Source: Amphiscolops sp. MND2022
Taxonomy: Eukaryota
Direction of reading: 5' to 3'
Assembly: GCA_964187785.1 (NCBI GenBank)
Contig: OZ076409.1
Location: forward strand, 41,976,001-42,040,000
Length of the DNA: 64,000 bases
How positions within the stretch are numbered: the stretch's first letter is position 1; each line of letters begins with the position of its first letter. A program made the position numbers and the translations under genes. Positions 1 to 47,273 of the stretch are shown here, one piece after another. The notes under the pieces were generated by a model. That model was not told where the DNA came from, ran no database searches, and was given only the letters and a program-made list of their open reading frames with translations.

Positions 1-6
1 CAAAGA

Positions 7-19673: not shown

Positions 19674-19878
19674 GGTTCGGACGAGAAGTTTGAGAACTGT
19701 GCACAACGAATAGACTGCGAGGAAGAGGTGGGTTTAGAGAGGTGTGAACGCAGCACATTCTGTATCCCCCCTGAGTGGGAGTGCAACGGGTTTGGTGAGT
19801 GTCTAATGGGGGAGGAGGAGGACAAGTTTAAGTGCGCTGAACACCAATGTCTGCCTGGACAAGTCAGATGCTCCAATG
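19674..19878 (+). CDS. ENaC-like gene exon A: LDLa repeats
   Basis: tttcag|GGT ... AATG|gtaagt; GSDEKFENC ... CERSTFCIPPEWECNGFGEC ... CLPGQVRCSNG. Confidence 0.88.
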
Positions 19879-22576
19879 GTAAGTATCATTACGTCATTAC
19901 ATGCACAAATTTAAATGCCAAGGAACCGGGTTCAGAAAGTACCCAAGGATCCATACGTTCAAGACGTCAATAGGTCAGTTTTTTAAATGACTCAATGCGC
20001 AGAATTTTGAGCTGTCCTGAATTTAATCGATTCGGGAAAAAGTCTTGTGATGCTGGAAAGGTCAAAGAGATCTGTTACTCCGTTTAGGGGGTAACTCTGT
20101 TAAAAACCCGTTTAGCTGCTATTAGCTACATTTAAGTAGAGAAATTTTTTGTAGATTTTTTTTAAAATTTTAATTGTTTAAATTGTTTTTAAAAGTTCAA
20201 TTTCAGTAACGGGTTTTCGATTTGGTTTTATGGTTTCTGGTAGGAAAAGAAGCAGAAAAGTTTTAGTGTTTTGATGTTTCTGGTGAGATAAAATGCAAAA
20301 AAATCAGCCCAAAGGGTCCCCTTCGAGTTTTCATCGGTACTGTGACACTAAGAATTTATTCAAAAGAAAATCCTTGACGCTTTGAAGACCTTTCGCGTTT
20401 TTCGGCAATGTGAGATTTTTTCGAAACTTTCACTTTTCCAAAAGAGTCCCTCTTGGTTTTCGTTGAACCCTTGATTTTCGTTGAACCTTTAGTTTAAGAA
20501 ACTAAAGGGTCCCTCCTATGGAGTTTCGGAACTGTGCAAATTTTTTCAAGAAAATTTTGATTTTTGACCGAATTGACCCCTCTTCGATGTTGCCATTTAG
20601 GGCGAAAGGTTTCTTAAAGAACGTAAAGGCTTCCATTTAAGTTTTATCTTCACTGTGCGACCTTTTTGCAATGAAAATTTAAATATTGTTTCCCCAATTT
20701 TGTTTGTTTTTGATTTTTTAGTAAAAGAAAAACAACAAACAGCTAAACTCAAATATATTTCCGTGGAATGAATATTTTGAGTAGACCATGGTTGGAAAAT
20801 AAGAGACACAATTGAAGCAAAACTGATCTGAATTGTCTTAAATGGTTTATTTATTACGCCTTCGGAACCACCAACCAAGCAATTGTTTGTAATCATTTAT
20901 TACCCAGTGTAAACCCTCTTGGAACTCTTGATGAGAAGATTCTTACCAAGAAATCCAAGAAATTGCAAGATCGTGCCAAGAAAATCAAGAAATCTCAAGG
21001 TTCTAATCAAGAGTTTCAAGAAAAACCAAGAAAAGGCAAGAAAATGCAAGTAGCCTCAGGATTCCATTTTAGAGTGTCAGTCACCATAAAACATTCAGAA
21101 GTCTCAAAAATGAGCTAAATCAGTTGCTGTGCAAAAACTTGAGGGCGTTCAACACCTCTCTACACACGGCAGCGATCTGGATTTCGTTCATCATGATTTC
21201 TGTAACCACGACGGTGAGGGAGCCTCTGAGAACATGTGTATGGCAAATTGAGATCTGAATTGAGCAGATTATGAGCTGAAAGGATCGAAAATAAGATCCA
21301 ATTAATATGGAATTACAATCTGAAACTTACAACTTTTGAAAAGTTGCGGAATTGGTAATTGCAGACGATTTCCCATTGAAATTGGCCGGAAAATTGCTGA
21401 TAAAAGGCTAATGGCCGAAAAGTACGGTAAACAGGCCCCAGTTCAACAATTTGCGAGACCGCACTAAATTTTGAATTGGTCAAAATTTTCACCTCCCAGA
21501 GTTCATGATAAGAATCTTAAAAAGATTCTTGTCAAGAACTTCAAGATTTCGTGATTTATGATTGTGTATTACTTCTTTAACGTATGTTGGAATTAACGTA
21601 AACCATTTTATCTTGCTAACACAAAATTGGCTCGGCAAAATCCTGAAAAAAACCTATTGAATGCCTAATTTTACTCCTCTCCTCTCTTCCTCCATGGGAT
21701 GGCATAGAAGGTACAACAATGCAAAGATCAAAAAAGCTGTATTCACTGCTCAGTTACGGTAGCTATTTATATGGTCTCATTTTGAAATTGCAATTGGATT
21801 TTTTTTGATTTTCCATAAAATTTATACCCTGCGTGGATTTGTGGAGTAAAGATGTGTTTAAAACCAAAGCAACAAATCGTGTGAAGTGACAACATTCACT
21901 ATAGGTGGTGGCATTACCCCCGTGCAAGAGATTAAGGCACCTCGGCAAATATGACACGGAAGATCAATGGGATAAAGGAATATGACAAATAGGGAAAAGC
22001 CCCACTAAACGATTCACCAGGGATAATTTCCCAGGTATCTCTTTGTACCTACGTCTATCCATTTTGGTATTAATCCAAAAATTCAATGCGAGAGATGGTA
22101 TACGCTAAAAACAGGGATACAAATATGATTGTTTACCGTGCACGATTTTACAACTAGCTTACGATGACAGCAATTTGAATATCTTGAGGGAATTTTCCGA
22201 AAATAGCCGTCATTTAATGCAATTCAAAATGAACATAAGTTGTTTCACAAGACGAGCATTTGAGATGATTCGAATAAAATTATATGGAGGGCTGACATAC
22301 TGGAGGATGGAGTTATTCTATGAGTTTCTTTTCGATGAAAATTTCTTCCCGAGGCCTGAATTTTGATTGTGTTGGTGAAGGTATGCGGAAAACTCGTCGA
22401 AAACAACTCGTCGAAATTAAAGGGCGGAAAACTGATCGAAAATTAACTGATCCAATAATAATTGAGTGCAAACTCGTCGAATATTTACATATTACCCACA
22501 GGGATTATTCAGTGCTAATCATGGATTAATTTTCCTTAAAAGTTTTACGCATAATATGGCTTTTATAATTGTTTGA

Positions 22577-22776
22577 NNNNNNNNNNNNNNNNNNNNNNNN
22601 NNNNNNNNNNNNNNNNNNNNNNNNNNNNNNNNNNNNNNNNNNNNNNNNNNNNNNNNNNNNNNNNNNNNNNNNNNNNNNNNNNNNNNNNNNNNNNNNNNNN
22701 NNNNNNNNNNNNNNNNNNNNNNNNNNNNNNNNNNNNNNNNNNNNNNNNNNNNNNNNNNNNNNNNNNNNNNNNNNNN
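22577..22776. other. Assembly gap (200 N)
   Basis: Run of N. Confidence 1.
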
Positions 22777-26363: not shown

Positions 26364-26545
26364 GTTCATTTCCGTGTATCTACGAATGGCAGTTCTGTGA
26401 CGGGCTATTCGACTGTCCGGCCATGGTGGATGAAATCAACTGTCCCCCTAAGGCCAAGCTCAACTGCAGTGAAGAGCAGGGTAGAGTGGCCTGTGCAGAC
26501 AACTCTAGATGCATCAAAAAAGAATGGAGATGTGATGGCTACCAG
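26364..26545 (+). CDS. ENaC-like gene exon B: LDLa repeats
   Basis: ttttcag|GT ... CAG|gtacga; SFPCIYEWQFCDGLFDCPAMVDEINC ... CADNSRCIKKEWRCDGYQ completes the repeat begun in exon A. Confidence 0.92.
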
Positions 26546-26687: not shown

Positions 26688-27407
26688 TGTAACGGCAACT
26701 GCCCATGTCAAAATTTTCGAAGCAAAAATTCGTTCAAATCTGACGTGGCACTCAAACATGCTCCAGACGAAAGACCTGTCAAAAAAGCAGATCAGAAATC
26801 AGAAATCGCCCCCGCGAGAGACGACGAGAAGAGAAGACGTAGAAAACAGTCCCTAGAACACGGTGAAGTGCTCATCTTTGGTCTTTGGCGTTTACACTAC
26901 ATAGGCAACAGAAACCGGTGTTCCAGATGCTCGCCTGAAGATCCTGCGGCGTCCTGTGCGGTGACGAGCGCTAGCGCTGGGAAGCCATGGTCAATTCATT
27001 CCTACTAAAAACTCAAACTTCCGATATTGTTGTGCTTGTTGTGCTTTCCTTGTTGTAGTAGATTGATATGCTCGAGAGCTGCCCATTTACATCTATGGTT
27101 ACCCCTTTTTGATGTCGATTTTATCAGATTCTCCAATACTATGGCTCTACATCCTCCCGTTTTCAGCCCCCTTTTTAAAGGCTAATTGAGCAGTGGTCTT
27201 GAGACATGCAAGATGCCCGTTACTTTTAGCAATTACAGACTAGGACCAGGCCAGAGAGTTTCCAACAAGACGGTTCCCCCACCTTGGGACTGGCTCCTTC
27301 GGAGGGAAAATGAGCTAGGGCCGCGGAGATCTAAGTCCCAGATTATATTCGCTGTTCTAGTTCCTCCATTCTACGTTGCGGTTCAAGCGCCAGCGCTTAT
27401 CGTTACA
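26688..27407 (+). repeat. 5' LTR of the giant Gypsy
   Basis: 7-bp inverted termini; no difference from 44877-45596 found by eye; LTR-internal ORFs translate identically. Confidence 0.97.
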
Positions 27408-27422
27408 TAGAACCTCATTTTT

Positions 27423-27440
27423 TGGCGACCACAGAGGGAT
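27423..27440 (+). promoter_or_regulatory. Primer-binding site, tRNA-Arg-like
   Basis: TGGCGACCACAGAGGGAT is complementary to a tRNA 3' end ...CCCTCTGTGGTCG-CCA, as in GACC-start tRNA-Arg. Confidence 0.75.
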
Positions 27441-28620
27441 CGTCTTGGGAAGCTTTCCCTAGCGGTTTTTAAAAGATCTGGCCCCCTGGTAATCAGCGCC
27501 AAGCCCGTTTCGACTCTGAAGAAGGAGAGAGAAGCAGAGTTTTGCCCTTTTTTAGTCGTGTGACATTCTACTGGAACTGGGAGAAGCGTTGAACCAGAGA
27601 AAACCCGAAAAAATCACGTTTTCAGGTGCGAAAATGGTATTTTTAGGTGTTTTGGAAGGAAATCGATATTTTTGTGTGATGTGTTGTGTGCCCATCAGCG
27701 GGTATCTTTTTGCAGGTGCTGAAGACCGTAGCACGTGGCTACGGGTGTTTAACAGGTTTTGCAAGCTATTTTCAGCCATTTTATGCCATGCAAGAGGGTG
27801 ACTGGTGGATGGCTGACCATGAACCAGCGAGGCGAAGGGGAAGTCAAATTGTGTGTTGCCTACTTCCTACTCCCATTTCTCGTGGAGACGTCCTAGAGGT
27901 ATGGTTTTTGGTGGACGGCAAGTGCAATTGCAGACGATGCTAATGGTCCAACCCGCGTGTCTCTATCTGGTCTGGATGTGGAGAAAAAGCGTGGTGAAGG
28001 TGCACCCCCTGTGACCGGACGCGTCGCTCAAATGGCTCATGGTCGGTGAAATTTTTGAAAATGCACCTTTTTCGACGGGGAATCGTTGGTGCAGGTCAGT
28101 AATGTTTTATTGTAGATGTAACGACACCCTACGAAGTGCTTTTCTGCAAAAAAGATAGCACTTGCGTGAAAAAACCTTGATTTTGCGTTTTTTTCGTGTT
28201 TTTCGTGGTTTTGAGCACTTGTGCTCAACGGAGCCAGGAAAACTTCATGAAAAGTGTTGTAAAAAGCAGCTACAAGGCTCGAGAAAGCTAGTACGAGGCA
28301 CAGAAGGCCGTAATTTAGCCTTTGGTTGTGATAAAAGTGCCGATCTAGCACCAGAAAATTGCAAAAAAGTGGAATTTTGACCAAAATGGCACCCAGAAAC
28401 ACAGGCGTACACTGGTGTAGAAGTATGAAAAAGCAGTGTACGGTGTTTTGTCAAGCGTAGTAAACCCACGGGACACTAACTGTAACTTTTGCAGCGGATT
28501 CAGGCAGCCTGGGGCTGACACGGTGCAAAAAACCGGTAATTTAAGGTGTTTTTAGGCATAGAAAGTGCATTGTCTGAAAGTCTTGAGGGTGAAGCTTAGT
28601 GGACCAGAGCGAGTCTGAAT

Positions 28621-28894
28621 GCTCTTATTTTCTGTTTTGGTAATAAAAATAACGCATTGTGGTGAAAACCGCGTGCAAAAATTCCTTTTCATTGCTGAGA
28701 AAAGTTGAAAAACCTTGATTTTTAGTCAGTTTTAGGAGTGTCTGAGTATACAGTTAAAACCCCTTGGGCACTCTGTCTTTTTGTTAGCTAGGAGCCTTCG
28801 CGCTCTCATTTTCTGTTTCTATAATAAAAATAACGCATTGTGGTGAAAACCGCGTGCAAAAACTCCCATTCAGTGCTGAGAAAAGTGGAAAAAC
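28621..28894 (+). repeat. Two ~92-bp direct repeats (period 181) in the Gypsy 5' leader
   Basis: TAATAAAAATAACGCATTGTGGTGAAAACCGCGTGCAAAAA core at 28641 and 28822. Confidence 0.9.
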
Positions 28895-30112
28895 GCACTG
28901 GATTTGATCAATTTTCCACAAAACCGGACTGTCTCTGAGTTAGGGTCGGGTCATCGATTCCTGAACCCTAGCCAAAAAGTGGTTGCATTTCCGTAACCAC
29001 CACAAAAAGTAACGTTAGTGCCGAAAATTTGGTGGGCGTATCGTTCCCCAAAGTCGAGAAAAGCTCTCTGACGTTTTGACTTCAGAGGAGCTGAAAAAGC
29101 CGAAAAATTCCAAAACTGCAGGACTGTCAGTGCCTTATATCCAACGGGCATAACCAATTGAGGGTTTACCCCAGTGCTACGGGTAGTGGGGCAACACGTT
29201 GGTCCCATTTTGTCCGCCGTACCACTTTCTGAAGTGATCCTCTTGGTCAATTTGTGAAAAAGTTGTCAAAAACAGTGTTTTTTCGCGTACAACGTACATA
29301 GTGGGTCGGAACTTCAAATAAGCGCTTGCGCTTCAATTCGACCACATCAGCGGCATTGTAGGTGCCCACAGGCATAAACTACCAAGTTTGGTGCCGATCT
29401 GTGTGATACTTGTGGAGAAAATAGGCAAAAAGTGGCACCCAAAAAGGTGTGCAAAAAGGCAGTTTTTTCTTGATTTTTCCAAGTAACCCGGGTACCTTAG
29501 CCAACGGGTGGGGCCATATTGCAGCCTACCATCGTAACCTGTGCTAGTTCTTACGTCGCTGCAGAGAATTTGAGCTTGCTAGCTCGTTCCAGTGGACCGC
29601 AATCTTGAAAAAGACGTGAAAAACAGTGTATTTTGGTACATAGTGGTACCGCACGTCTGTACCTAGGTGAAACTGTGTAGAAGGGGCGCAGCTCAAAACT
29701 GTGTTTATCTTCGTGAACCTACACGTACCTAAGATCTGCTGGTCAATTTTGGGCTTGATACAACGCCCCCAGCGCACACACGAGCCTCTTGAGTGTTGTA
29801 GTGCAAATTTTGGAAAATCCAAAAAATCTTTGAAATTCTTCCTGTGAGTGACCGGAGACGTTTTGCCCCGAACCAGGTTGATTTTCTGGCCCAGTGTGCT
29901 TGTGGAAAAGCGCTGTGTAAATTTGAACAGCCTACGAGCCTTAAAACGTACTTCGAGAAATTTGGGACGTGGTGAAACAGTCAAATTTCTTAAGTCCACA
30001 CCGAGACGAGCCCAAAGCTAACAGCGACTCGACAAATCCCGCGTTGTTCGAGGCTTCTTTAAAGGCTACGTCCGAATCGTTGACACCTGTTCTGCCATTG
30101 GCATTGAGTGTA

Positions 30113-33100
30113 ATGGTCCTACCAGGCCTGGAAAAGCTTGACATGAGTTCGCAATCATGGGTGACCATAGGATCCACAATGGACGGTTCGCATTTTTCAG
30201 ACGAAATGTCTGACGAAGTCACTATCGAGCAACAACGAAAGGAGGAACTGGCCGCCATGGTCCCTCCCTCCGAGGGTTCCGCTGCATCTGGAAGCTCTCG
30301 TCGAACCGAACAATGGGTCGAAGAAACCTGTCGTGAAAGAGCCAATGAAGCAGAAGAAGAGTGGCCCAACTCAAACGTGACCAACGAACTTGCAGCTGAG
30401 GAAGGGTGCTCTCGCGCACCCCTAGGGGAACAAATGAGCTCTCGCCTACAAATCACGGTGGATGAGGATCTGACCTACTCGGAAAACACGAGTGGTGCGA
30501 GACCGCAAGGGACTGGAGTCACTCGAAGTAACCATAGAGTTTGTGCTTATGGCAAACACAAGAAAGTGCGACCGCCCATGATAAATGTAGGTGAACGTCA
30601 AGTTGAGGTGCCTCGTAAGAGGAGCGTGGCAGGTTCAGTAGCATCATCCCAACGATCTTCGGTGTACAAAGCAGCAATATTGGAAGCCCAAGCCGAGACC
30701 CAACGTGCCTTAGCTGAACTGGCTAGCACTCGTGCTGGATGCAATGACCAACACCGTGCCATCGCAGAAAATATGAGAACATTGCAGACAACGATGCGAG
30801 AAGGTCTGCAGGTCAGTGATCAACTGCGAACCGCGCAGAATACGCAGGGCGCTCGCGTAGATGCACTAGGATACAGAATGGGTGAGATGAATGACCTTCT
30901 GATGGCCCGTGAACTTCGTGTGGAAACCCAGATCAATGATTTGAGTAACCAAATGCACACTGTGCTCAATGCTATCAACATCATGAGGCGCGAAAGGTCC
31001 CTCCCACGACAAGCTGGCGCCACTGAAGGTGTGCCGATCGCGGATTCAATGAAGGCCACGGAATCATCGCACCGGAGTCAGGCAACAAAACCCGAGTTGG
31101 CGAGCGTATTGAAGCCCAGCACCTCCAAGTCGACAACGCCTGAAACCCGAACCAAGGATCCTGTGCCCATCATGGCTGCCGTGGAGCGCAAACCTGCACG
31201 GGTGCAGGTAAGAGGGCCCCACGACTCCTCGTCGATGAGCCAAATGACATCCTCCATAGTTCGAAGTGCCACCCGAGACCAAGGTGTGGACCCGATGTCA
31301 CCTATCTATCTAGATACTTCTACCGAAGTTGATTTATCCTGTACTAAGGCCACACTAGGGTCCCAGACTGATGGAGCTGCGTATGTGACGGCCCCTACCA
31401 TGGTTTCTGGAACGGACTCCATGTATCTGACCGCCGACTGGACAGCTGAGGACGGGATGCCCTCGGGCGCTCCTTGCGCGAGCAGCACTCGCAGGAAAGA
31501 AGACGTGACGAACCTCTCAGTGCGAGCTACGCATGGCAGTGACGACGGCACCGATGATGTGGCGCCTAAAGAAGGAGAGGCTGAAGCCATTTCTCCTGAA
31601 CAATTGAGGTTCACTGCCGCCATTTCCAAAGCAATGTCCAAAGAACTAGCACCGTTACTTGCGGGACGTGACCTGGCTCAGACCAAACCCAGTGTGTATC
31701 GAGGCTCTAAGGACGGATCTATTGATGGCTGGATCCTAGTGATGCAGCGATACTTAAAAAGAATCCAAACCAAAATCTCGGCCGAAGATCGGGCCTGGAG
31801 TATTATCGGTCACCTCGAAGGTGAGGCTCGCAACTACATTATCAACAAGGCAGAGTCTGAACGTGACACCCCCGAGAAGGTGTTCGAGCTGCTATCTAGT
31901 CGATTTGGCGCGGGAGGAAATCGCATGCAGGTGCGGCAGACTTTCCAAAGCCGCGTCCAACAAGAAAAAGAAGACTGGATGCAGTACTTAGACGCTTTAG
32001 AGGGTCTCAGGAGCCAAGGGTTCCCGCAAGAAAGTATCACTACGAAACGCTATGAAATCCTGCAACGCTTCATGGAAGGTGTGCGAGATCCAGTGTTGAG
32101 GCGTGAACTTGCTATAGTATACGCCTCGGAAACTTTTCTTACCGAACCCCCTACCGTGGAGTCCTTGCGATTTACCACACGTCAGCTGCAACGCAATCGC
32201 CCCAGACCCACCCAACCTCAACAACCCTATGATCCCCGCTTAGCCATGAGGTCTAGACCTCATCCTTTCGCACCACTACCGCCGAACAAGATGGTTATGC
32301 CGCAGGGCGTCTTGCCACCTCCGGCGCCCCCCCAAAATGTCCCAGTTCCGGCTGTCCCAGCTCCCGTCCGAGCGCCAGTAGGTGCTTGTTTTCACTGTGG
32401 GCAAAACGGACATTTTGCTCGCGAGTGCCCCAATCGTGACCAGGCCCGAAAACCAATGACCGCCTCCGAACCAGAGGGCGTGAAGGTGACCACGGAAGAC
32501 ACGACCGATGGTATCCTTGAAGGTCATCCAGGGATCTATCAATGCGCGAGCTGTGGCCTTTTTGATCAGGCGGAAGTGCAATGTGGAGAGCACTCCCATG
32601 CGCCGAAACCCAATGAAGAGTTGGCCTACAATCGGTGGGCTGAGGTCGAATCAGCTGGCATCGCCGCGCACACCGTACCTTTGGAAGATGACCGAGTGTT
32701 GATGCTACACCCAGCGGAACCGCCTGCGTTCCACACTCCGATGACTTTCACTTGTGGTGCTAAGCAAGTTCAAACCTGCTTGGAACCCACAACGTTCGAT
32801 CCGCAAGGACGTACACTGATTTCAATTCACCTGTTGCTGGCAGCTGAGCAAACACGTAGGCCGACGCTAACTCTGGCGAAGCTATGGGTCGAATTATCTA
32901 TCCTCTATAAACGAAACGAGTTACCTCGACCGAAAGAATGGTACGCTCCGGGAGAGTCTGCGACTCTGACAACGTATTCCCCAGTGCCAGTCTGCGCTTC
33001 AATGGATGGAGTGGACATGAAGTTCGAAGCCTGTGTGGTGGTGGATGTGTTTCCCCCTGGCATTTGTCTGGGTCCCCAGGAGCTCAAATGCTATAACATC

Positions 33101-36100: not shown

Positions 36101-39100
36101 GCACTCAAAAAGTTGGTGCTGAACGAATCTATTGATCACGACGTGTTTCCCGAGAACGTGCGTGAGTTCGCACGCAACTACTACCGTCAGAAGAAAACCC
36201 TCCTGTTTATCAACAAGAATGGTGTACTTTGCGTACAATACCCTCCCAACCAACGTCCCCTGCACGAACGTCCGTGCATGATCGTCATGCCACAACTGTA
36301 CCAGCATGAGATTTTATTCCGCGCGCATGACGCTATGGGACATCAAGGTATCTCCAAAGTGGTGGCTAGGATTCAAGAACGTCACACATGGCCTGGTATT
36401 CGGCGCAGCGTGGGCCGTTACGTTGGCCAATGCCTCACCTGTCAACAAGTGCGGGATAAGCCTGGTGACGTCCGATTCCATTTAAAGAATATCCAGAGCG
36501 GATACTTCAACGAATTGGTTCAATATGATCACCTGAAAATCTGCCCCTCAGACAGTAATAACACCGGCATCTTGGTCATAATTGACCATTTCTCCAAGTT
36601 CGCGGAAGCAGTGCCCTGTAGTCATCATGACTACGACGCTGTGACTACCTCTCGGTTGCTGTTGCAAAAGTGGTTCGCCCGTCATGGCACACCCACTAGG
36701 ATGCAGTCTGACAATGCCCCTAATTTGACTGCCGAGGTGTCCAACGAATTCCTAAAAGCAGCCCACGTCACCAAAGTAACCTCTACAGCTAGCCATCCGA
36801 GAACCCAAGGCTTGGTCGAGCGCCAAAATCGGACGCTGCTGACCCTACTGCGAGTTTTTTGTTCCCGCCGTATGCGCGATTGGGACCAATGTCTTGATGA
36901 GGTCATGGGTGCCTACAACTCTACGAGGCACGCTACCACTGGCTTCTCTCCCTATATGCTGACCCGTGGCGTAGAGAAGGCCATCCCTCTCACCTTCTTG
37001 TATCCCGAGTTTGCAGCCAAATCATTCGAGTCGCATGAGGCGTATGTCGATCATGTATTGGCTCGCCAACAGGAAATACATGACCTGGTACGGCGTAACA
37101 CGCACCAAGCCCAATTGCGTCAAAAATTGAAGTACGACCGTGCTATACAAGCACGAGCTTACCAAGTAGGCGAGCTCGTCTGGGTTTTTTGCCGCTACGT
37201 ACCGCAAAAGGGTTCCCCGAAATTGATGCGTGCTTGGCGAGGCCCGCACAAAGTGGTACAAGTTTTTCAGGACGGTCGTGTCTATGTACTAGACACAGGT
37301 CAAAAAGTTCATTTTGAGCGTCTTAAACCGCACCACAGTGGCCCCCTTGAACTTGCTACTGCACACTCGGACAGTGGTGAGGTGGTGGTCCTCATGGACC
37401 CCGAACCTGAACGTTCCGTCGACGTAGTTGATGACGACAAATCTTTATCGTCGTATAAACCAGAACAACTACTTTCAGAGGCGTCCGATGCATCTTTGCC
37501 CTCACGTCGACGTCACTGGATGGACACCCGACTACGCTCGAAACTTCGCGCAGGCGGCTCCCGCCCGCATTATCAGCAATTTGACTATTCCACATCGGGT
37601 ACAGACGACGAACAATCCGATGCCATGTTGCCGATACCTCCTAATCCAGTGGACGAGGATCTAGCGGAGCCTGCGGCTCCTCCGACTACGTTGGATCAGT
37701 CAATATCCCCTGCCCGTGTATTACCCCAGCTGTTCTCTGACCATGAGCGCGTGCGCTCACCGTCTCCGCAAATATCCTCTGAAGAAGAGACATCGTTACC
37801 AGGAACCTCAGCATCCTTGTTAACGAATCCCTCGCTAACCAACTTTCTTAGTAACTATCCCATATGGCCGACCGCCCCTCCGATCCCCCTCAAATCTGCC
37901 AGCAGCGACAGCGACGGTCAGCCCGATCTGCCTGATGCTCCCGAGACTTCGCCAGGAGCGGGGACCGCTCCTTCTCTTAAAAGGGGGAGGGGGAGACCAC
38001 CCAAGGCACAGAAGAAACGGCTGATTCGAGCGAAGGCAAGAACGAGGAAGAAAGAAACACCGAGAAAAACCGAAGCTGAAACTGCGATCCAGGCCGAAAC
38101 GGAAGCTCCCAGAACTGCAGAGACGCTAACAGAAGCATCTGCAACTGCTCTTAGGTATCAACTAAGGAGTAAGCGACAGCCGCGCTACAAGTGTGGAACC
38201 TGCGGGCTGCGAGATTGTGTCTGCTTATTAGCTGTGAATGAGAACCGGAGGGTTCCCATTGGAGCCCGGGGAGTTCCTCCGGAAGAGAGAGAAAACTTGG
38301 TGTACCGCCTCACGGTGCGGGCCGAGAAAACCTACTCAGCTGTAGAGCGGTCCGGAGACTACCCTGTGGACACTATCCTGGAGAAGTTGTCACTGCCTGG
38401 GGTAACGAAGGCCCCTTGTCCTAGGTTTAAGGAGTGGACAAGCGATGGAAAGGGCCTGGAGTTTACCCTGCCCACGGTGTTGCCCCCCGTGCCCAGTAAT
38501 GTTGCGTTTGGACCATTCAATTTTGAAAGGGAACCTGTGCAGATGGTCCGATGCATCACTGCTGACTTGTTGTGCGACAAGTATGGAGTCCAGGTGGAAC
38601 CAGGAGGGGTATACAGCCCGGCTCCTCACTGGTGGCTGCTGGTAACAGCTCCACGAGTGGAGGCGCTGGTAGAACCGTTGAATCTGTTATCCTGTCTGGA
38701 GAGTCTGAGGACCCTCACCACTGTGGACTTAATACTTTGCTTCCATATTATAGACTGGTACCGAGGCAAAATGAAGTTCGCGTGGTGGCTGGAACTAATA
38801 ATCACATGTTTCGCCACCTATCCCAGAATTCGACTATTAGATGAGTGGACCCACACTTTCGAGATCCCCTTGTTCCCTAAAGCCGCCCTGGGAACTTTAG
38901 ACGCGTGGGTAAAGGCCGGCAGCGACAATCGAGCGATGCCCCGCTCAGTGTGGCAAGACCTGGCTGCAGTCCAAGGGCGTACCCCTCGCGTGTGTCTGCC
39001 CTCAGATAATGGCCCCGGACGAGAGATTGTTTACCCGGGAGCCCTGTATCCGAACTCAGCCGAACACGTCTCTTACGATGAATCCGATTTCTTGCAGGCC

Positions 39101-39526
39101 GAGGGCGACATAGTGTTAGCATGCCCTGCTGACCTGAAGACCAACTCTGCCGCCCTGCGATATGTGCTGCGGGAGTGCGGCATGGAAGATGTATTTGCCT
39201 TACGACCTAAAGTGGGCGAGATTCTCACTATCCCGCCCGATGTGAACCCCAACCCCAACCAAAGTATTCACCTGTTGATAGTCCGTGCTAACCAGCGCGC
39301 ACCGCTGCTGACAGACGACTACTTGCGTTGCATGGCGCACTTGACACAGCGCCTGATTGATAAAGGATCCACACGGGTCCACCTACCGATTCTGGATCCT
39401 GAGAGACCGGCTTTCTCGTTGGTTAACCTGTACCATACTCTAGCGAGCATGTTCGAGGGTACTGGTATTCACGTGGTTTTGCATAGCCGCGTATATGTAT
39501 CAATATTAACTATAGGGCTGAAGTAG
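30113..39526 (+). CDS. gag-pol: Gag-Pol polyprotein (~3137 aa from the first ATG) with a long post-integrase extension
   Basis: Uninterrupted frame (open from 29969): CFHCGQNGHFAREC knuckle 32387, LVDTGS 33206, dUTPase-like segment ~33560-33836, YIDD 34718, LDTDAS RNase H ~35150, HHCC and D-D-E integrase ~36326-36820, WRGP motif ~37234. Confidence 0.96.
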   Translation: MVLPGLEKLDMSSQSWVTIGSTMDGSHFSDEMSDEVTIEQQRKEELAAMVPPSEGSAASGSSRRTEQWVEETCRERANEAEEEWPNSNVTNELAAEEGCSRAPLGEQMSSRLQITVDEDLTYSENTSGARPQGTGVTRSNHRVCAYGKHKKVRPPMINVGERQVEVPRKRSVAGSVASSQRSSVYKAAILEAQAETQRALAELASTRAGCNDQHRAIAENMRTLQTTMREGLQVSDQLRTAQNTQGARVDALGYRMGEMNDLLMARELRVETQINDLSNQMHTVLNAINIMRRERSLPRQAGATEGVPIADSMKATESSHRSQATKPELASVLKPSTSKSTTPETRTKDPVPIMAAVERKPARVQVRGPHDSSSMSQMTSSIVRSATRDQGVDPMSPIYLDTSTEVDLSCTKATLGSQTDGAAYVTAPTMVSGTDSMYLTADWTAEDGMPSGAPCASSTRRKEDVTNLSVRATHGSDDGTDDVAPKEGEAEAISPEQLRFTAAISKAMSKELAPLLAGRDLAQTKPSVYRGSKDGSIDGWILVMQRYLKRIQTKISAEDRAWSIIGHLEGEARNYIINKAESERDTPEKVFELLSSRFGAGGNRMQVRQTFQSRVQQEKEDWMQYLDALEGLRSQGFPQESITTKRYEILQRFMEGVRDPVLRRELAIVYASETFLTEPPTVESLRFTTRQLQRNRPRPTQPQQPYDPRLAMRSRPHPFAPLPPNKMVMPQGVLPPPAPPQNVPVPAVPAPVRAPVGACFHCGQNGHFARECPNRDQARKPMTASEPEGVKVTTEDTTDGILEGHPGIYQCASCGLFDQAEVQCGEHSHAPKPNEELAYNRWAEVESAGIAAHTVPLEDDRVLMLHPAEPPAFHTPMTFTCGAKQVQTCLEPTTFDPQGRTLISIHLLLAAEQTRRPTLTLAKLWVELSILYKRNELPRPKEWYAPGESATLTTYSPVPVCASMDGVDMKFEACVVVDVFPPGICLGPQELKCYNINHQEPTGEARIDERASLVVSFVVPHAAPIPLRGLVDTGSGVSILTFSAFNRVAAKTGTVLKPYQVDLYAANGKTIKTYGLAEHIHFQLGGYELETNFVVVDDAMGVEDFLLGRNFLRSYQVLVDLTSMKIVVRAPVKPVWHHAHAQVGDTSIATPVVLDSDLVLQPFERAVARAKLVTNTLEPLIFQSVALNASLSDTTLHNVVFLEDSVATVSETGTLFVSLINLTSNPQRMRCGVQLGTVVPVTVVYQAVPQCLDSPTTTGTKTDADDSRANFVHKVYSEVNLSTASELTSSSEFEFLSSTDPSEAGLSEREIRKRTDPELMAPIPGPESQLKAVKDLWGASACESLRNLLDEFDELFMKHKADIGRCTIAKHTVEVEPGAVPHREGARRMSPEKAERANQEVRNLLALGMIQPSLSPWASGIVMVKKKNGELRFCCDFRPLNEVTIKDAYPLPRIDESLARLGKAKIYTSIDLAWAFWQIPVRKADRHKTAFACELGLFEWRRMPFGMCNASATFQRSIARALRNIVNREGSMVMAYIDDIVIATETVEDHMVRLREVFECLREAGFKMRVAKCDFMKSEIKYLGRVVSAEGVKPDPKAVVKLRDWEIPRNKTEMQSFLGFANYYREFIPWHAKLVAPLHAVTGLNATFAWGPEQQTAFNEIKKALIEATALAQPDSEGEFVLDTDASAVAISGILHQWQGPPGERRLRPIVYGSKKLTTTQAKYGAPKLEMFAAYYFIVKNHSYLCPRKFTLRVDNQALSWLKTYSTDQALIGRWIMTLEKYHFRVEHRPRTQHRNADGLSKRTNEYRCREKQLAQQPAAGERWNFLSADEFDKLPVAPWFDLQGRVIPNHPELPAHLQNLEPTAPDQLLRVLRRTKRATRRDRQAKAFAAPLPPPPALALQLHEDAYPDYPEDWIDVTDEAREDYLLPTHAVNVPSRTVYAIAGVNPVALQGTPSGVRDSIMALKDINTELHEHAHTVHGIKDLVLAQNRDVHVLALKKLVLNESIDHDVFPENVREFARNYYRQKKTLLFINKNGVLCVQYPPNQRPLHERPCMIVMPQLYQHEILFRAHDAMGHQGISKVVARIQERHTWPGIRRSVGRYVGQCLTCQQVRDKPGDVRFHLKNIQSGYFNELVQYDHLKICPSDSNNTGILVIIDHFSKFAEAVPCSHHDYDAVTTSRLLLQKWFARHGTPTRMQSDNAPNLTAEVSNEFLKAAHVTKVTSTASHPRTQGLVERQNRTLLTLLRVFCSRRMRDWDQCLDEVMGAYNSTRHATTGFSPYMLTRGVEKAIPLTFLYPEFAAKSFESHEAYVDHVLARQQEIHDLVRRNTHQAQLRQKLKYDRAIQARAYQVGELVWVFCRYVPQKGSPKLMRAWRGPHKVVQVFQDGRVYVLDTGQKVHFERLKPHHSGPLELATAHSDSGEVVVLMDPEPERSVDVVDDDKSLSSYKPEQLLSEASDASLPSRRRHWMDTRLRSKLRAGGSRPHYQQFDYSTSGTDDEQSDAMLPIPPNPVDEDLAEPAAPPTTLDQSISPARVLPQLFSDHERVRSPSPQISSEEETSLPGTSASLLTNPSLTNFLSNYPIWPTAPPIPLKSASSDSDGQPDLPDAPETSPGAGTAPSLKRGRGRPPKAQKKRLIRAKARTRKKETPRKTEAETAIQAETEAPRTAETLTEASATALRYQLRSKRQPRYKCGTCGLRDCVCLLAVNENRRVPIGARGVPPEERENLVYRLTVRAEKTYSAVERSGDYPVDTILEKLSLPGVTKAPCPRFKEWTSDGKGLEFTLPTVLPPVPSNVAFGPFNFEREPVQMVRCITADLLCDKYGVQVEPGGVYSPAPHWWLLVTAPRVEALVEPLNLLSCLESLRTLTTVDLILCFHIIDWYRGKMKFAWWLELIITCFATYPRIRLLDEWTHTFEIPLFPKAALGTLDAWVKAGSDNRAMPRSVWQDLAAVQGRTPRVCLPSDNGPGREIVYPGALYPNSAEHVSYDESDFLQAEGDIVLACPADLKTNSAALRYVLRECGMEDVFALRPKVGEILTIPPDVNPNPNQSIHLLIVRANQRAPLLTDDYLRCMAHLTQRLIDKGSTRVHLPILDPERPAFSLVNLYHTLASMFEGTGIHVVLHSRVYVSILTIGLK

Positions 39527-39820
39527 CCTTTTCATTTTAGTTGTCCCCATTTTTCCTTTGCCCTCAGTTCTTGTATCAGTTTTTGTAACAACCTTGGCAG
39601 AGCCTTGAAATGCTCTCGAGATGTTAATTTGTCATGTTGTTCACTCAAGGTTTTGTTCTAGTTCGTTAGTTAGTTAGAGTTAGATTTTAAGTTTGTAGTG
39701 GCCCCTTTATGGAGCCAGCGTTGCCTGGCTGCAATTGAGGGACGAACCGACTCGCGGCTCGTTCCAGAGAGAACTTGTCCCTGTAAGTTTAACAGTGGTC
39801 CTTTTTAGACCTATGCATTA

Positions 39821-42490
39821 ATGGCCCATTGCCCTAACAATTCAGCGCCTGCAACTGGGTCTAATAGTGCAAGGCCCCAGGAATCTGCGCGAGCGCAGAG
39901 GGTCAATCAGGCCCAATATGTCGAAGAAAGGCTGCGGGACGGTCTTTCGCCAGTAGCCGTAGCTGGAGTGGCCGCCCTACTGACCCAGCTTGAATCGATG
40001 CAAATGCTGCCAAATGCATCTTTATCAATCACCACGGAGGTGGCAAGCTATCGTCGCACCTTGACGTGCACCAACAATGCTTGGGATGGGCACGATCTGA
40101 CTCACCAGTTCTTGGACGAAAGATCAATCGCAGTGCATGGCCCCAGCCAGGGCACCAGATTCGAACAAGAAACATCACTGCGCATGATGCCCGTCAACGT
40201 CCCATCGCTGCCTTCCATTGCGGCACCAAATCCAGTGCAGATGACGCCGCATTCTAGCTCGATTGCTTATGGAGCACCATATGGAACCCGGACAACGACG
40301 ACGCAGAACACTACCAATCAACCAGCCTCAAGTCGGGAGCCCTCGGGGTCCCAACCGCCATCAGTGCCTAATCTAAATCTGATTGGACGGAGTCCCAGCG
40401 AGCAAGCAGTGATTGTGGCCCTGCAGGCTGTCGCCAACTACCCCAACTCCTCTGACTTCGTTCGTGCCGTTGAGCAAAGGATTCCCGGATTGACACATTA
40501 CTTGCAAGCTGCCGCTCAGCCCTCGGGCTGCGTCACCCCACCCACCACCCTAGCCGAAACTGTGTCTATGGAAGCAGAAACTACGGCTGGACCAAGCACC
40601 AGCGCCATGACCTATCCCCGTGAGGAAACTGGCCGGAAGCGACTTACTGAGGAAAATATCGTCGCTACACGCCATGATTCCGTGACCGACAGTCCGACCA
40701 GTCGTCCCCCTCCGGACAAGCGAGCAGATGTACCCCACCAGTCGCAGATGAAAAGTGTGGTGGTCGTGAGGCCTCCATATCGCCATGGCCACCTAGGCGT
40801 AGGCGCGCCTCAGATGTCCCTGGAAGAGGCCATCAACCGCTACGGCAGTGTGGAGGCGAATCCTGAAACGAGTCCTGTGCCCTCGGGCACAGGCTCTGCC
40901 AACATGTCCTTGGAGGTGTCCGAGACAATCGATGAGAACAATCCTCCCGCCTTTCTTCCCCCGTCCGATGACGTATCTGGGACAGTGGTGACTGGCGACA
41001 GCAAACGCATTTGGATGGCGGCGGAGTGTTTGTACCCAAACACGTGTGCGATCAGAAGGAGGGCACCGCCGTCTGACGCCGACCAGAAAGAAGTGAGCAG
41101 GATCACCATTGCGGCTCAGATAACTCGGTCGCTGCGTGCCCGTGATGCGGACATGAGCGAGCAAGCCTGGGAACAGCGTGCTCGAGAGCAACTGCCCGCG
41201 ACACCCAACAATTATATGGCTCGCCTGCAGCATGACCTCGCCGAGCAATTTCCTGCTAGGTACATGTTGCACGAAGGGGAGACCTGGGAAGCCAACGCCC
41301 GCTATGCTCGCAACATCGAATCAATGAAGCCCCTTCTGAAAGCGGCCCTGCAGCGTGCGCGCTACTGTGTGGCAGTGGACTCGACACTTAGGAGTGATCT
41401 CCCCATCGACAACCTTCTACCCGACGTGCTGGTATTAACAATGCCACTCTCCCGCTTCGCTGAGGTTGCCGAGATGGTCGCGGTCATGTATGACCCTAAC
41501 TTGAGGGGATCTCTAAGAGAGCCGCCCCCGCGACGTGTGATCTTCACAAATCTAATCGACCACATGGCTTGTGAAGGGGTGCTACGCAACCTGGATGCCC
41601 TCATGGCAGATACCCGCAGACCTGGGAGTGTAGCGTCCTTAGTGAACGTGGTTGCAGATGCAATGGAGCGTGCAGCAGGGATCCTTCGGGGTCGTCTGGG
41701 AGCGCTCGCGCTCTTCGCATCCCCGCCGGGATTCATGTATTGGCAACGAAGCTTGCAGCAATTTGTGTACATCCTGTCTGAAGTATGCAAAGCGCGCCGA
41801 ATCGAGTTCGCTATTTGCGCGCCAAATCTGCGAGTTGATCGAGGAGACCTACGCCCAGATGCATTGTCATACCCCGCCTTCTTTGCTGCCGTGTCAAGAG
41901 TACTAATCGCTGTGGAACGATCAGGAAATGCCCAACTGACTATCGACGACGCTATACTGTTCGATCATGGAATGTGTATGGGGCGCATGGCCTTCGACTT
42001 GGACGGGAATCGCGTCATGCGAGCATCCAACCTGACTGAACGAGAAGCCGTCCGACGATACAACTGGCTGGTGCGGAAGGACAAAGAAATTCCCGTACGA
42101 GCAGAGCTGGCAGAGCTCGTGAAGGAAATTGAGACCTGGCCCGCCACGCGCACGGTCGAAAGGACCATTCCCCAGATTCGATTTGCCGCGGGAATAGAAC
42201 CCGTCAAGTTGCCCGTGGGCATGAGGTACGTCGTGGCCATAGAGGCGACCAACTTGAAGGCTGAAGTAGATGCTGCCGGAATAACGTATGCCGAATGGTA
42301 TCAGTCCAGATTCGTGGACAGGACCCTGGCAGAGGTAGCTCAAGAGCTTAACTGTCCCTTGGAAGCCTTTTGTACCAGTCTCGGACTGGGCTGGAACATC
42401 GACGTGATAGCCTCTGAGTACTTGCTCACCAATGTGCAGACCGATAAATTGTTGGAAACCATCGGCGAAGCTACTGTGGGGAGATGTTAG
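39821..42490 (+). CDS. Gypsy ORF2 N-terminal part (889 aa): disordered N-terminus plus SGNH-fold-like domain
   Basis: Long sense ORF between pol and the 3' LTR; CVAVDSTLR / VLTMPLSR / VIFTNLIDH / DLRPDALSY motif series. Confidence 0.8.
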   Translation: MAHCPNNSAPATGSNSARPQESARAQRVNQAQYVEERLRDGLSPVAVAGVAALLTQLESMQMLPNASLSITTEVASYRRTLTCTNNAWDGHDLTHQFLDERSIAVHGPSQGTRFEQETSLRMMPVNVPSLPSIAAPNPVQMTPHSSSIAYGAPYGTRTTTTQNTTNQPASSREPSGSQPPSVPNLNLIGRSPSEQAVIVALQAVANYPNSSDFVRAVEQRIPGLTHYLQAAAQPSGCVTPPTTLAETVSMEAETTAGPSTSAMTYPREETGRKRLTEENIVATRHDSVTDSPTSRPPPDKRADVPHQSQMKSVVVVRPPYRHGHLGVGAPQMSLEEAINRYGSVEANPETSPVPSGTGSANMSLEVSETIDENNPPAFLPPSDDVSGTVVTGDSKRIWMAAECLYPNTCAIRRRAPPSDADQKEVSRITIAAQITRSLRARDADMSEQAWEQRAREQLPATPNNYMARLQHDLAEQFPARYMLHEGETWEANARYARNIESMKPLLKAALQRARYCVAVDSTLRSDLPIDNLLPDVLVLTMPLSRFAEVAEMVAVMYDPNLRGSLREPPPRRVIFTNLIDHMACEGVLRNLDALMADTRRPGSVASLVNVVADAMERAAGILRGRLGALALFASPPGFMYWQRSLQQFVYILSEVCKARRIEFAICAPNLRVDRGDLRPDALSYPAFFAAVSRVLIAVERSGNAQLTIDDAILFDHGMCMGRMAFDLDGNRVMRASNLTEREAVRRYNWLVRKDKEIPVRAELAELVKEIETWPATRTVERTIPQIRFAAGIEPVKLPVGMRYVVAIEATNLKAEVDAAGITYAEWYQSRFVDRTLAEVAQELNCPLEAFCTSLGLGWNIDVIASEYLLTNVQTDKLLETIGEATVGRC

Positions 42491-44100
42491 CGCTCGCGCT
42501 AGCCATGGGCCCGACGAAGTTTGTGGCAGGTCCCCTTGCTATGTTAGTCGAGTTGGTAGTGTCTAGTGATCTAGTCACTTTCTACAGCTACCTGATCCTC
42601 GCGCAGGGACAATTACGCAGCCTAACTCGATGGGGTCACCTCCTAAATTCCAAGGACCAGCAAGACTATGTCGCCCAGCTAGAACGCATGCGTGCGTCCC
42701 TCCAACATTGGTTGTACTCCACCCTAGTGTTCGCCTCTGGCTTGTTCGTAGGCGTGGATCAATCGCAACCCCTCCACCATTCCGAGCGTCAACTCCCTGC
42801 GGAAACGGCGGGATTCCCCATGCCCCAGCAAATCGCCGATTTGACTCTGGCCGAAGTGGAGGACTTCGTGGCCGTTATGGCTTCCGTCTTGGCTCCAATC
42901 TTCGGTGCGGTCGGTGTGTGCCGGTATCCCACCAGACCACTGACGAGAACAGTACAGGTGCATATGGTCTCCTTCTGCACCTATCTTCAAGGACGGCCCC
43001 CACTAACCTACCAACGAATCGTACAGGCTGTATTGAGTGGCGAGATGCCGCACGGGTACACCACCTTGAAGTCGGAGAAACAACTAGAAGAGAATTTGAT
43101 GGGTCTGTTGCGTGCTCGCACACGAAAAGCGTGCCCTTTGCCACGAGAATACGGCCCAGTCAACTGGTACTCCGCACCACTCAGCCTGAATGGAGTCCCC
43201 TTTAGATTCCCCTGGTCGCAGGAGTTCATACGCAAGGTGATCCGAGCCAGCATTAGTGCTGGTCCACCCGTAGATCCTCTGTACGCTTTCAAATGCATCA
43301 CTTTCCCAAATCACTACTGGAAGGAGCCACTGGGATGGCCTAGGGCAAAACCCGTTGGTCGCGCCCCTGAAGCCTTCAATCGACAAATCCAGTATATGGA
43401 ATTGACTCAAATCCCAAACTGGATTGAAGGAGCAGCTCAGACTCGTCAGAGAAACCTGCAGAGCCGTGTGACTCCGTTCCCAAGAAAAGCTGCCTGGCGA
43501 CCGCAAGCCAAGATGACGATGTCAGGGGATATGTCCATCGTCCAACACGATGAGATTAATTCTGTGCTAGGCTCTGAAGCCCGCGCAGAGTGGGAAGGAC
43601 ATTGTTTGGAGCTGGAAATTGCCAGCTTCCCCAAATGGAAGCGAGCTTGCGAGCTCTGGAGTCAGCCCGGCTGGGTCTCCAAGCGGATATCCTTGGCCGT
43701 GGAGAGCAGAGCTGAACTCGAGAGACAACAGGCGTTCGCGCCTACCATGCTGGCACCCACAATGGCCATGTCACTAAGTCAGCCCATCGACCGGCCCGTG
43801 ACCCTGGATTTGCCCACTCATATCCTGCAGGCAGAGCCTGTGAGTCCACCATCGACACAAGCCAGTCCTCAGTCATCACAACCCCAGACCGGAGAACACG
43901 ACGCTGAACTGACCCCCAGCACTATCCTGGTGCAGCCAATCGCCGATTTGACGCTCCCAGAGGACCTGTCCGACTCGGAAACAGTAGTTACTGTGGTTCC
44001 TGCTCAACGCAGAGCGTCAGTTGCGTCGGAAGATGCCAGCAATCCAGGAGCTCCCGATGATGCCATAAAGAATCGAGCTCGACGCAGCTCAGCCCAATAA
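42484..44100 (+). CDS. Gypsy ORF2 C-terminal part or ORF3 (538 aa), function unknown
   Basis: Overlaps the previous ORF by 7 nt; one extra G in GTGGGGAGATG would fuse the two. Confidence 0.75.
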   Translation: MLALALAMGPTKFVAGPLAMLVELVVSSDLVTFYSYLILAQGQLRSLTRWGHLLNSKDQQDYVAQLERMRASLQHWLYSTLVFASGLFVGVDQSQPLHHSERQLPAETAGFPMPQQIADLTLAEVEDFVAVMASVLAPIFGAVGVCRYPTRPLTRTVQVHMVSFCTYLQGRPPLTYQRIVQAVLSGEMPHGYTTLKSEKQLEENLMGLLRARTRKACPLPREYGPVNWYSAPLSLNGVPFRFPWSQEFIRKVIRASISAGPPVDPLYAFKCITFPNHYWKEPLGWPRAKPVGRAPEAFNRQIQYMELTQIPNWIEGAAQTRQRNLQSRVTPFPRKAAWRPQAKMTMSGDMSIVQHDEINSVLGSEARAEWEGHCLELEIASFPKWKRACELWSQPGWVSKRISLAVESRAELERQQAFAPTMLAPTMAMSLSQPIDRPVTLDLPTHILQAEPVSPPSTQASPQSSQPQTGEHDAELTPSTILVQPIADLTLPEDLSDSETVVTVVPAQRRASVASEDASNPGAPDDAIKNRARRSSAQ

Positions 44101-44876
44101 ACCCTGCCGCCACTGGGAGCGTTCGCGCTCCCTATAGACTCTAAACTCTACCGAAACTGTGCCTTCAAACTTGTTGCTTTAGCCGGTGCTACCCCTACAT
44201 GGTGCAAATTTTTGTTCATAGTTATTACTTAGTTATTGTACTGTTAGTAATGCGCTGGGTGTACGGTCAATAGAGTGCACCTGCCCCAGCTGCTTCGCCT
44301 ACAAAGTAAAAAAGAATCTATTACCAAAGAAAAACTGTTATTTCTGTTGCGCACCGTTCGCGGTGTTTTTGAGTTGCCATGGTCTAGAAAAAGTCTTAGC
44401 CTTTTAGTTACGATTTTTGCCGTTTTTTTTTGTGTTTTGGTGCTCAAGCACCTTCTATCGACTGTCTAAGGAGTAGCCGAAGCGGCGCGCTCCCAAAAGA
44501 AGTTTTATGTTGTTCGAAATTGATCGAAAACTGTAAATGACTAGTTGCACGAAAAAGGAAATTTTAGCTGACCTTGGTCGCAAAAGAATTTTTAGCGAAA
44601 ACTGCTTGCCCAAACGAGTTTTAACCGACTGAAAACCTTGGCTCTCGAGCTGGTGCTAAAACCTCGTTTGCACTTTTTGTAAAAATACTAGGCAGTAAAA
44701 TTTTCTTTAAAAAAAAAAAAACAGCGAAATTTGTCAAAAATAGTTGCTGAAAAACAAGGACTCGTCCTTGTCCCCTGTGGTGTGGATGATGATCCCCAGC
44801 AGTCTCAGCGATGCCGTTTCCAGACGAGGCCAGATGCCGCTTGCCAGGGACGACAAGCCAGAAGCCCGGGGAGTGA

Positions 44877-45596
44877 TGTAACGGCAACTGCCCATGTCAA
44901 AATTTTCGAAGCAAAAATTCGTTCAAATCTGACGTGGCACTCAAACATGCTCCAGACGAAAGACCTGTCAAAAAAGCAGATCAGAAATCAGAAATCGCCC
45001 CCGCGAGAGACGACGAGAAGAGAAGACGTAGAAAACAGTCCCTAGAACACGGTGAAGTGCTCATCTTTGGTCTTTGGCGTTTACACTACATAGGCAACAG
45101 AAACCGGTGTTCCAGATGCTCGCCTGAAGATCCTGCGGCGTCCTGTGCGGTGACGAGCGCTAGCGCTGGGAAGCCATGGTCAATTCATTCCTACTAAAAA
45201 CTCAAACTTCCGATATTGTTGTGCTTGTTGTGCTTTCCTTGTTGTAGTAGATTGATATGCTCGAGAGCTGCCCATTTACATCTATGGTTACCCCTTTTTG
45301 ATGTCGATTTTATCAGATTCTCCAATACTATGGCTCTACATCCTCCCGTTTTCAGCCCCCTTTTTAAAGGCTAATTGAGCAGTGGTCTTGAGACATGCAA
45401 GATGCCCGTTACTTTTAGCAATTACAGACTAGGACCAGGCCAGAGAGTTTCCAACAAGACGGTTCCCCCACCTTGGGACTGGCTCCTTCGGAGGGAAAAT
45501 GAGCTAGGGCCGCGGAGATCTAAGTCCCAGATTATATTCGCTGTTCTAGTTCCTCCATTCTACGTTGCGGTTCAAGCGCCAGCGCTTATCGTTACA
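44877..45596 (+). repeat. 3' LTR of the giant Gypsy
   Basis: Copy of 26688-27407 after GAAGCCCGGGGAGTGA. Confidence 0.97.
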
Positions 45597-46354: not shown

Positions 46355-46682
46355 GATTGTGACACACCAGTTGACGAACGAGACTGTGACGTCAGAGTGA
46401 CATGTGACGACATGAAGGACGACTATAAGTCTTGTTCACGCTGGGCGCAATACGGTTTTTGTGAGTTGAAAGATGCGCATTACACTTTCATGAAGGACCA
46501 CTGCGCCCGTACCTGTCAATTCTGCATCAAGACCCAAGAAGACAATGAGAATATTCTGGGTGACAAGTCAGACCTTGTGTCCAACAGACAGTGGCGAATC
46601 TACTACGACACTTCCAAACATGAGGACTACAGTGATGTCGTCGACCTCGGAATGATGACCAGACAAGAAATCAAGCTCCTGG
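46355..46682 (+). CDS. ENaC-like gene exon C: end of LDLa, ShK domain, start of channel ectodomain
   Basis: aatag|GAT ... CTGG|gttag; DCDTPVDERDC then CDDMKDDYKSCSRWAQYGFC...MKDHCARTCQFC then RQEIKLLG. Confidence 0.92.
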
Positions 46683-46952
46683 GTTAGCACGCAATGTCGT
46701 TATCATTGTAATACTATTCTTTGAATAGAAATAATTTTTGAAGGTAATGGTTAACGCCCATCTTGCCATATTTTGCTCATCGCAATGACTATATCTTGAA
46801 AATGAAGTGAATTTTTTTAAAAAGGAGCACACTATGTTTGCAAAAAAAAAGACTTTCACCAGAATGGATAAGTCCAAATGAGAAGTTTTGACAAAAATAT
46901 GTACAAAACTCGGGCGGTGCTTTCGCGATTACAACGCTGTTTTGATTTCAAG

Positions 46953-47273
46953 GTCATCAGCAGGACGAATTCATCATCCAGTGCACGTTCGATGGTAAAA
47001 CTTGTTCCAAAGACTGGTTTAAAGAATTCCAGAACGACATGTATGGAAACTGCTGGACCTTCAATGACGGATCTCAGAACACTGCCCTCTGGAACATTTC
47101 CCAGGCAGGAGTGAGACATGCCCTGCAGTTGACAGTGTTCCTGGATGTCGCCAACTATCTGGGCATTCTCTCCCACAGAACAGGTGCCCGCTTGTCCATC
47201 CAGGACCCTAGGGTTCAGCCTTTTCCAGACGAACTGGGTATCACTCTTACTCCAGGAAAACATACCAGCATAG
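46953..47273 (+). CDS. ENaC-like gene exon D
   Basis: tttcaag|GT ... ATAG|gtttgt; GHQQDEFIIQCTFDGKTC ... YGNCWTFN ... GARLSIQDP..QPFPDELGITLTPGKHTSIG. Confidence 0.95.

Follow-up and report, generated by a model that had tools for sequence, protein, structure and literature searches.

The window analysed here, a stretch of 64,000 nucleotides from the acoel Amphiscolops sp. MND2022 (C1:41976001-42040000), is crossed by a DEG/ENaC channel gene that has eight LDLa repeats and a single ShK domain at the position of the channel finger. Judged from the comparisons below, the gene is real, intact and conserved. Thirteen exons were located over 209 kb, the N-terminal exons and the start codon lying outside this count. 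All 12 introns between them are GT-AG and in phase, and the located exons give 980 codons up to the stop codon with no stops or frameshifts. The gene reading was built from per-exon tables and alignment to an orthologue. The predicted protein runs, in order, through the HG motif, the first transmembrane helix (TM1), the first finger helix, eight LDLa repeats, the ShK domain, a linker, the distal finger, palm, thumb, knuckle and the second transmembrane helix (TM2).

Exon structure and continuity of the gene

The four exons on which the original prediction was based (exons 6 to 9 in Table 1) are found where it had placed them, each flanked by AG and GT, in phases 0-1-0-1-1 and free of stops. 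At least three complete LDLa repeats and the tail of another were expected in the window and are indeed present, two of them split by introns; the total for the gene rises to eight because three further LDLa exons lie between the TM1 exon and the window. The ShK domain and the linker do share exon 8, together with the tail of LDLa8, but the GH..FIIQC stretch that follows them begins a separate exon after a gap of 270 bp. An ASC family search of the genome located the TM1 exon, sought upstream since the original prediction, 152 kb upstream of the window; none was found in the first 100 kb upstream. Four more exons lie downstream of exon 9, the last of them closing with a stop codon at 56760-56762. 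At the donor of exon 11 (55524-55531) the canonical GT at 55524 makes the exon two residues shorter than in the orthologue and the paralogue, and those two residues are retained only with a donor at 55530 that reads GG. Such a reading might reflect an error in the assembly, allelic variation or a donor outside the canonical type.

Table 1. Located exons of the channel gene and the intronic retrotransposon. Positions are those of the window unless prefixed C1; percentages are identity to the orthologue.
Feature	Position	Strand	Basis
HG-motif exon, TSIVHG ahead of TM1	C1:41823420-41823542		pre-TM1 HG motif
TM1 exon	C1:41823912-41824187		Pfam ASC E 6e-18
Exon 6: LDLa5 tail, complete LDLa6 (19716-19835), first half of LDLa7	19674..19878	+	phase 0 in, 1 out; Pfam LDLa E 1e-4; 62%
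Exon 7: second half of LDLa7, most of LDLa8	26364..26545	+	AG/GT, phase 1 in, 0 out; Pfam LDLa E 6e-8; 61%
Exon 8: LDLa8 tail (46355-46387), ShK (46403-46525), linker, distal finger helices with DYSD motif	46355..46682	+	Pfam ShK E 3e-7; 73%
Exon 9: palm and beta-ball segment GH..FIIQC..GNCWTFN	46953..47273	+	Pfam ASC E 5e-19; 89%
Exon 10: cysteine-rich thumb, 7 Cys	53457..53688	+	Pfam ASC E 1e-7
Exon 11: thumb end, palm, knuckle; donor uncertain by 6 bases	55325..55523	+	Pfam ASC E 8.5e-5; 84%
Exon 12: knuckle insert	55903..56033	+	58%; AG/GT in phase
Exon 13: TM2 (Ser at degenerin site, GLS filter), C-terminal tail, stop	56468..56762	+	Pfam ASC E 8e-18
Ty3/gypsy-type long terminal repeat (LTR) retrotransposon, intronic, outside the protein	26688..45596	+	

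The joins between these exons were examined against three kinds of relative. A paralogue on the minus strand of C1 (26658-26817 kb) has the same eight LDLa repeats and ShK domain, and the nine exons that take it from TM1 to the palm are joined across GT-AG introns, all in phase. Its introns lie mostly at other places, so that five junctions of the window gene fall inside single exons of the paralogue: helix 1 to LDLa1, the splits in LDLa5, LDLa7 and LDLa8, and linker to GH. The LDLa8 split read through in this way is the junction that spans the retrotransposon. Two junctions are introns in both genes. In Symsagittifera roscoffensis the orthologue XP_063725435.1 (an uncharacterized gene model of 1359 residues with ASC, LDLa and ShK) matches 13 of the 13 exons in order, at 52-89% identity. 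Finally, in three paralogues without introns a single frame runs through TM1, LDLa, CUB and TM2. Because every exon matches the family expected of it and the order is that of a full-length orthologue, the exon assembly is not a chance one. The doubt attached to the original prediction, that the LDLa and ShK exons might not be joined to those of the channel, is thereby answered: at the level of sequence the comparisons confirm that they belong to the channel gene and that the joins hold. The introns of 99, 39, 22 and 20 kb would suit an artefact, whether of LDLa exons that come from a different gene or were carried by a transposon, or of a locus that is a defunct copy. Such an artefact is scarcely credible given the ordered match to one orthologous protein, the junctions read through by the paralogue, the single-frame paralogues and exons free of stops and frameshifts.

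The intron preceding the ShK exon measures 19.8 kb, nearly all of it filled by the 18.9-kb retrotransposon. This element has two identical 720-bp LTRs and a 3193-residue gag-pol frame with protease, reverse transcriptase, RNase H and integrase. The LTR has 40 scored matches in the genome at 99-100%, many of them paired 18.2 kb apart. A clear 4-6 bp target duplication was not found around the element, only a 3-base match. Two more long frames, of 893 and 550 residues, are without a Pfam match, and the former gave no usable match in the ESM Atlas. Frameshifted gypsy-type and BEL/Pao retrotransposons occupy 1-4510 and 11138-17630 of the window, in the intron upstream of exon 6. Inside the 99-kb intron (loci L007-L008), AT-rich frames resemble DNA polymerase B, integrase and an ATPase, and by eye are like a Polinton/Maverick element.

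The insert and the channel core

The protein resembles DEG/ENaC channels (PF00858) in TM1, the HG motif, an FPAISICN strand, the palm, the cysteine-rich thumb and a TM2 with a GxS filter, and its best channel matches in the PDB are FaNaC (E 6e-40) and alpha-ENaC (E 6e-39). The GH..FIIQCTFDGKTC..YGNCWTFN segment recognised in the original prediction is a confident ASC match (exon 9). Similarity of the TM1 exon extends up to residue 104 of chicken ASIC1 and up to 140 of alpha-ENaC; it resumes at alpha-ENaC 276 in the orthologue and at about ASIC1 162 in a hemichordate relative. Since the similarity stops and resumes around the finger, the insert is placed in the finger region, in agreement with the earlier view of a DEG/ENaC subunit whose modules are part of the gene and sit at this place. 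From first to last finger helix the span is about 480 residues here (eight LDLa repeats and ShK) against about 57 in ASIC1 and about 135 in alpha-ENaC (finger plus GRIP). Two transmembrane helices flank the ASC ectodomain, and the TM1 and TM2 exons are joined in the orthologue. Both the pre-TM1 motif, TSIVHG, and the TM2 degenerin site with its GLS filter, LLSNIGGALGLWLGLS, are intact. The cysteines that are near-invariant across 50 aligned proteins are present in exons 9-11. AlphaFold modelling of an intronless LDLa+CUB paralogue, which covers that protein only, kept the core fold, with FaNaC and ASIC1 as the best matches (predicted local distance difference test score, pLDDT, 81; predicted template-modelling score 0.69).

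The finger is a known site of regulation in this family. The inhibitory GRIP domain of ENaC is described as lying between finger helices 1 and 2 (PMC6197857), and FMRFa as binding the finger of FaNaC, the finger corner being important for gating throughout the family (PMC11026163). The present insert is like GRIP in being placed in the finger; it differs in that GRIP, as described, is a small beta-strand domain freed by furin (PMC6197857), whereas here a chain of receptor modules is found. No furin site of the form R-x-K/R-R occurs in the insert of the orthologue, and none was seen by eye in the window exons; such sites are present in six of the seven CUB-bearing relatives tested. ENaC-like release by furin is thus unlikely for the window gene.

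LDLa repeats are Ca2+-stabilised protein-binding modules with disulfide pairing 1-3, 2-5 and 4-6. The six-cysteine framework is found in six of the eight repeats, and the other two have four cysteines, one pair being lost. LDLa3 is without Cys4 and Cys6 and LDLa4 without Cys1 and Cys3, alike in the window gene, the paralogue and the orthologue. As each loss removes a whole disulfide pair, and the same one in three genes, the repeats look folded and maintained. D/D/D/E stands at the presumed calcium positions in four of the eight, and in the remaining four N, Q or E replaces some of these residues. In the orthologue, where Pfam detects seven LDLa stretches, the array has a net charge of -50. 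The six-cysteine ShK module, also part of the original prediction, was recovered by Pfam at 31.3 bits (cut-off 20.9), and that of the paralogue at 35.4 bits.

Relatives in other animals and in this genome

A HMMER search with the CUB paralogue gave 9279 matches, of which the 150 listed were examined. From these, 35 channel matches, mostly long, were chosen and one amphioxus protein was added; LDLa repeats were found in 22 of the 36. Of 20 proteins looked up, 17 carried names (nine from Saccoglossus, three from Ptychodera, one from Glandiceps, two from Patiria, one from Branchiostoma and one from Symsagittifera), and among the 16 non-acoel ones LDLa is present in 14, from hemichordates and a sea star. 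Wherever both flanks could be placed, the LDLa repeats are inside the finger span. CUB, TSP1, kringle, PAN, F5/8C and link modules occur at the same site, F5/8C and kringle being present in amphioxus relatives. An ShK pattern was seen in two of 65 channel-like proteins, the orthologue and Saccoglossus XP_006825152.1, the latter confirmed at 40 bits; ShK counts in relatives are lower bounds, because the whole-protein Pfam search missed the Saccoglossus domain, which was seen only on the isolated stretch. Because the query favours LDLa and CUB proteins, these counts are silent on frequency and on whether protostomes and cnidarians lack such channels. Homologue searches seeded with words had little depth (three matches among 2511 candidates and three among 3299), and what came from the ESM Atlas were plain ASC clusters at 0.79-0.80, which serve as leads only. 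Ahead of the channel, the model of XP_006825152.1 (P0109) also contains FN3, repeats rich in cysteine and one more hydrophobic stretch; its N-terminal part may be an annotation fusion of two genes or a real larger receptor.

By sequence, then, the family spans acoels, hemichordates and a sea star, and it is already in RefSeq as uncharacterized proteins. XP_063725435.1 has an identical architecture. Saccoglossus XP_006825152.1, XP_077865926.1 and XP_077866593.1, Ptychodera XP_070548202.1, Patiria XP_038045203.1 and Branchiostoma XP_035679932.1 resemble the window gene in having modules at the same finger site followed by D[YF]SD, and differ from it in that their module sets vary. As to the reservation that the architecture might be common and already described, the design is not unique to this gene; a search of the literature outside subscription journals and supplements turned up no account of LDLa, CUB, kringle or ShK within a DEG/ENaC channel. 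No mention of LDL was found in the accessible text of PMC9949801, PMC9234716, PMC10565955 and the Xenoturbella genome preprint. The architecture is thus known from databases, and a description in print was not found.

In a tree of the channel core, 45 of the 55 rows form one clade (support 99/99) with a common D[YF]SD motif after the insert; the tree groups tested were named after a tree had been seen. The clade consists of an acoel-type group of 17 rows (99/92), including two Symsagittifera proteins and four from this genome, three amphioxus-type rows, 12 non-LDLa relatives and 13 ambulacrarian LDLa channels (99/99). When the set was cut down to 29 rows, the same groups came out, the overall clade at 100/97 and the acoel group less well supported (92/88). 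The trees were rooted by midpoint or outgroups, acoel branches are long and named ASIC sequences are not among the rows. Placing the acoel and Saccoglossus LDLa+ShK genes as sisters was rejected on the core by the approximately unbiased test (p = 0.006), and because these two ShK-bearing proteins do not form a clade, ShK probably arose on two occasions or has often been lost. Nesting the acoel gene among the ambulacrarian LDLa channels was weakly rejected (p = 0.035). A single clade of all LDLa-bearing channels is neither shown nor rejected (p = 0.13). We offer as a rather doubtful generalisation that one undescribed DEG/ENaC branch is common to acoels, hemichordates, echinoderms and amphioxus, and that the finger in this branch is a plug-in socket for LDLa, ShK, CUB, kringle, PAN, F5/8C and TSP1. 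Its members would be ionotropic receptors that extracellular proteins or glycans gate directly, with the socket LDLa perhaps inherited and linking acoels with ambulacrarians.

The ASC search of this genome returned 101 matches. Screening of 27 paralogue stretches found LDLa in 12 (domain E <=1.3e-4), weakly in one and not in 14, the last including all eight sampled short single-exon channels; there are at least 12 LDLa-bearing channel loci besides the window gene and its paralogue. Those short channels belong to a set of divergent DEG/ENaC genes that has expanded (L041-L048); each is a single exon of about 470-560 codons, and all eight sampled are without LDLa. A large, partly intronless LDLa+CUB subfamily (L011, L012, L013, L016, L051 and related loci) was also seen. 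L011-L013 have no pre-TM1 HG motif and related proteins have furin-type sites after CUB; members of this subfamily are candidates, as far as sequence goes, for protease-activated or modulatory subunits. A further channel frame (L014:4716-6746, minus strand) has an insert with a lengthy tandem array whose unit is 10 residues.

How the inserted modules might act

The reading we favour, tentatively and at a little under an even chance, is that of an antenna that binds protein when calcium is present and acts on the gate by way of the finger. The acidic LDLa array would bind an extracellular protein in a calcium-dependent manner, and binding, relayed through the finger helices to the gate, would change the open probability, so that the channel might work as a protein-controlled sodium channel. 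The antenna is suggested by the different recognition modules (LDLa, CUB, TSP1, kringle, PAN and F5/8C) that relatives have at the same site, by the position of the insert in the gating corner of ENaC and FaNaC and by the intact pore motifs. Several observations weigh against it. Binding modules fit tethering or clustering equally well. The LDLa exons are less conserved (54-73%) than the channel exons (52-89%, the best at 84-89%). Many relatives in the same clade have a low-complexity acidic insert only, so folded modules are dispensable for the clade. The window allele itself has one ambiguous donor site and, inside one intron, a very recent same-strand retrotransposon. The EGAS-1 to -4 proteins of C. 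elegans, the named precedent for such a module fusion, have disulfide-rich extracellular modules (EGF, not LDLa or ShK) fused to a DEG/ENaC domain, and are described as having given no currents in oocytes (PMC10424705).

The two main alternatives keep the modules and change their task. In a mechanosensor, the three LDLa arrays of a trimer would anchor the channel in matrix, mucus or a sensory structure, so that a pull would open the gate. A long repeat array rooted in the finger would suit this, as would the matrix-type modules (TSP1, F5/8C, link and CUB) at the same site in relatives, and mechanical force is listed among DEG/ENaC stimuli (PMC11026163); the wide variation of module type and number among relatives is more like specificity than a fixed tether, and we consider the mechanosensor unlikely. 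The modules might instead just place, cluster or assemble the channel like a built-in auxiliary subunit, with another stimulus acting on the gate. NETO1/2, SOL-2 and LEV-10 are CUB+LDLa auxiliary proteins of ligand-gated channels, and the same module types there act on an ion channel from outside; they differ in being separate proteins for unrelated channel families, whereas here the modules are in the channel chain. Paralogues with exactly LDLa+CUB at the site fit such a scaffold, and the missing HG motif of the CUB paralogues suggests heteromeric or modulatory subunits. The window gene, by contrast, retains HG and filter, and the insertion site is a known gating corner, which leaves the scaffold as a minority possibility.

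A partner-free version of the antenna, in which calcium loss or low pH unfolds the repeats and so shifts gating, would be consistent with the strongly acidic array, its calcium-type motifs and the pH and calcium dependence of LDLa repeats. One repeat would suffice for it, and kringle, PAN, CUB and F5/8C at the same site point to recognition of macromolecules; we regard it as very unlikely. The ShK domain could also be a tethered toxin directed at K+ channels nearby or at the channel that bears it. Its closest solved sequences are the ShK domains of MMP23 (2K72, E 0.001) and of a nematode metalloprotease, and the worm peptide BmK1 is described as blocking Kv1.3 (PMC5793123). The same source describes ShK folds, with or without the Lys-Tyr dyad, that can be inactive on Kv channels (PMC5793123). 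The net charge is -1 in the window ShK and -2 in that of Saccoglossus, and an adjacent Lys-Tyr pair is absent in a sequence-level check of the window ShK, the AlphaFold model of the exon reaching a pLDDT of only 35. Together with the rarity of the motif among the channel-like proteins, this weakens the idea, carried over from the original prediction, of a channel-binding ShK; a toxin role is highly improbable, and the domain is most likely a folded spacer or an extra binding module adjoining the core rather than a K+-channel blocker.

Known stimuli of DEG/ENaC channels are protons, short peptides, proteases and force. If the antenna reading is true, receptor modules in the gating finger would add direct control of the channel by folded proteins or matrix. 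The presence of the family in acoels and deuterostome invertebrates is a character for mapping the disputed position of Xenacoelomorpha, within a sample that cannot show absence elsewhere. The module swaps at the finger form a natural series for testing how the finger drives the gate, and as the family is large in this genome, it may matter for the sensory biology of acoels.

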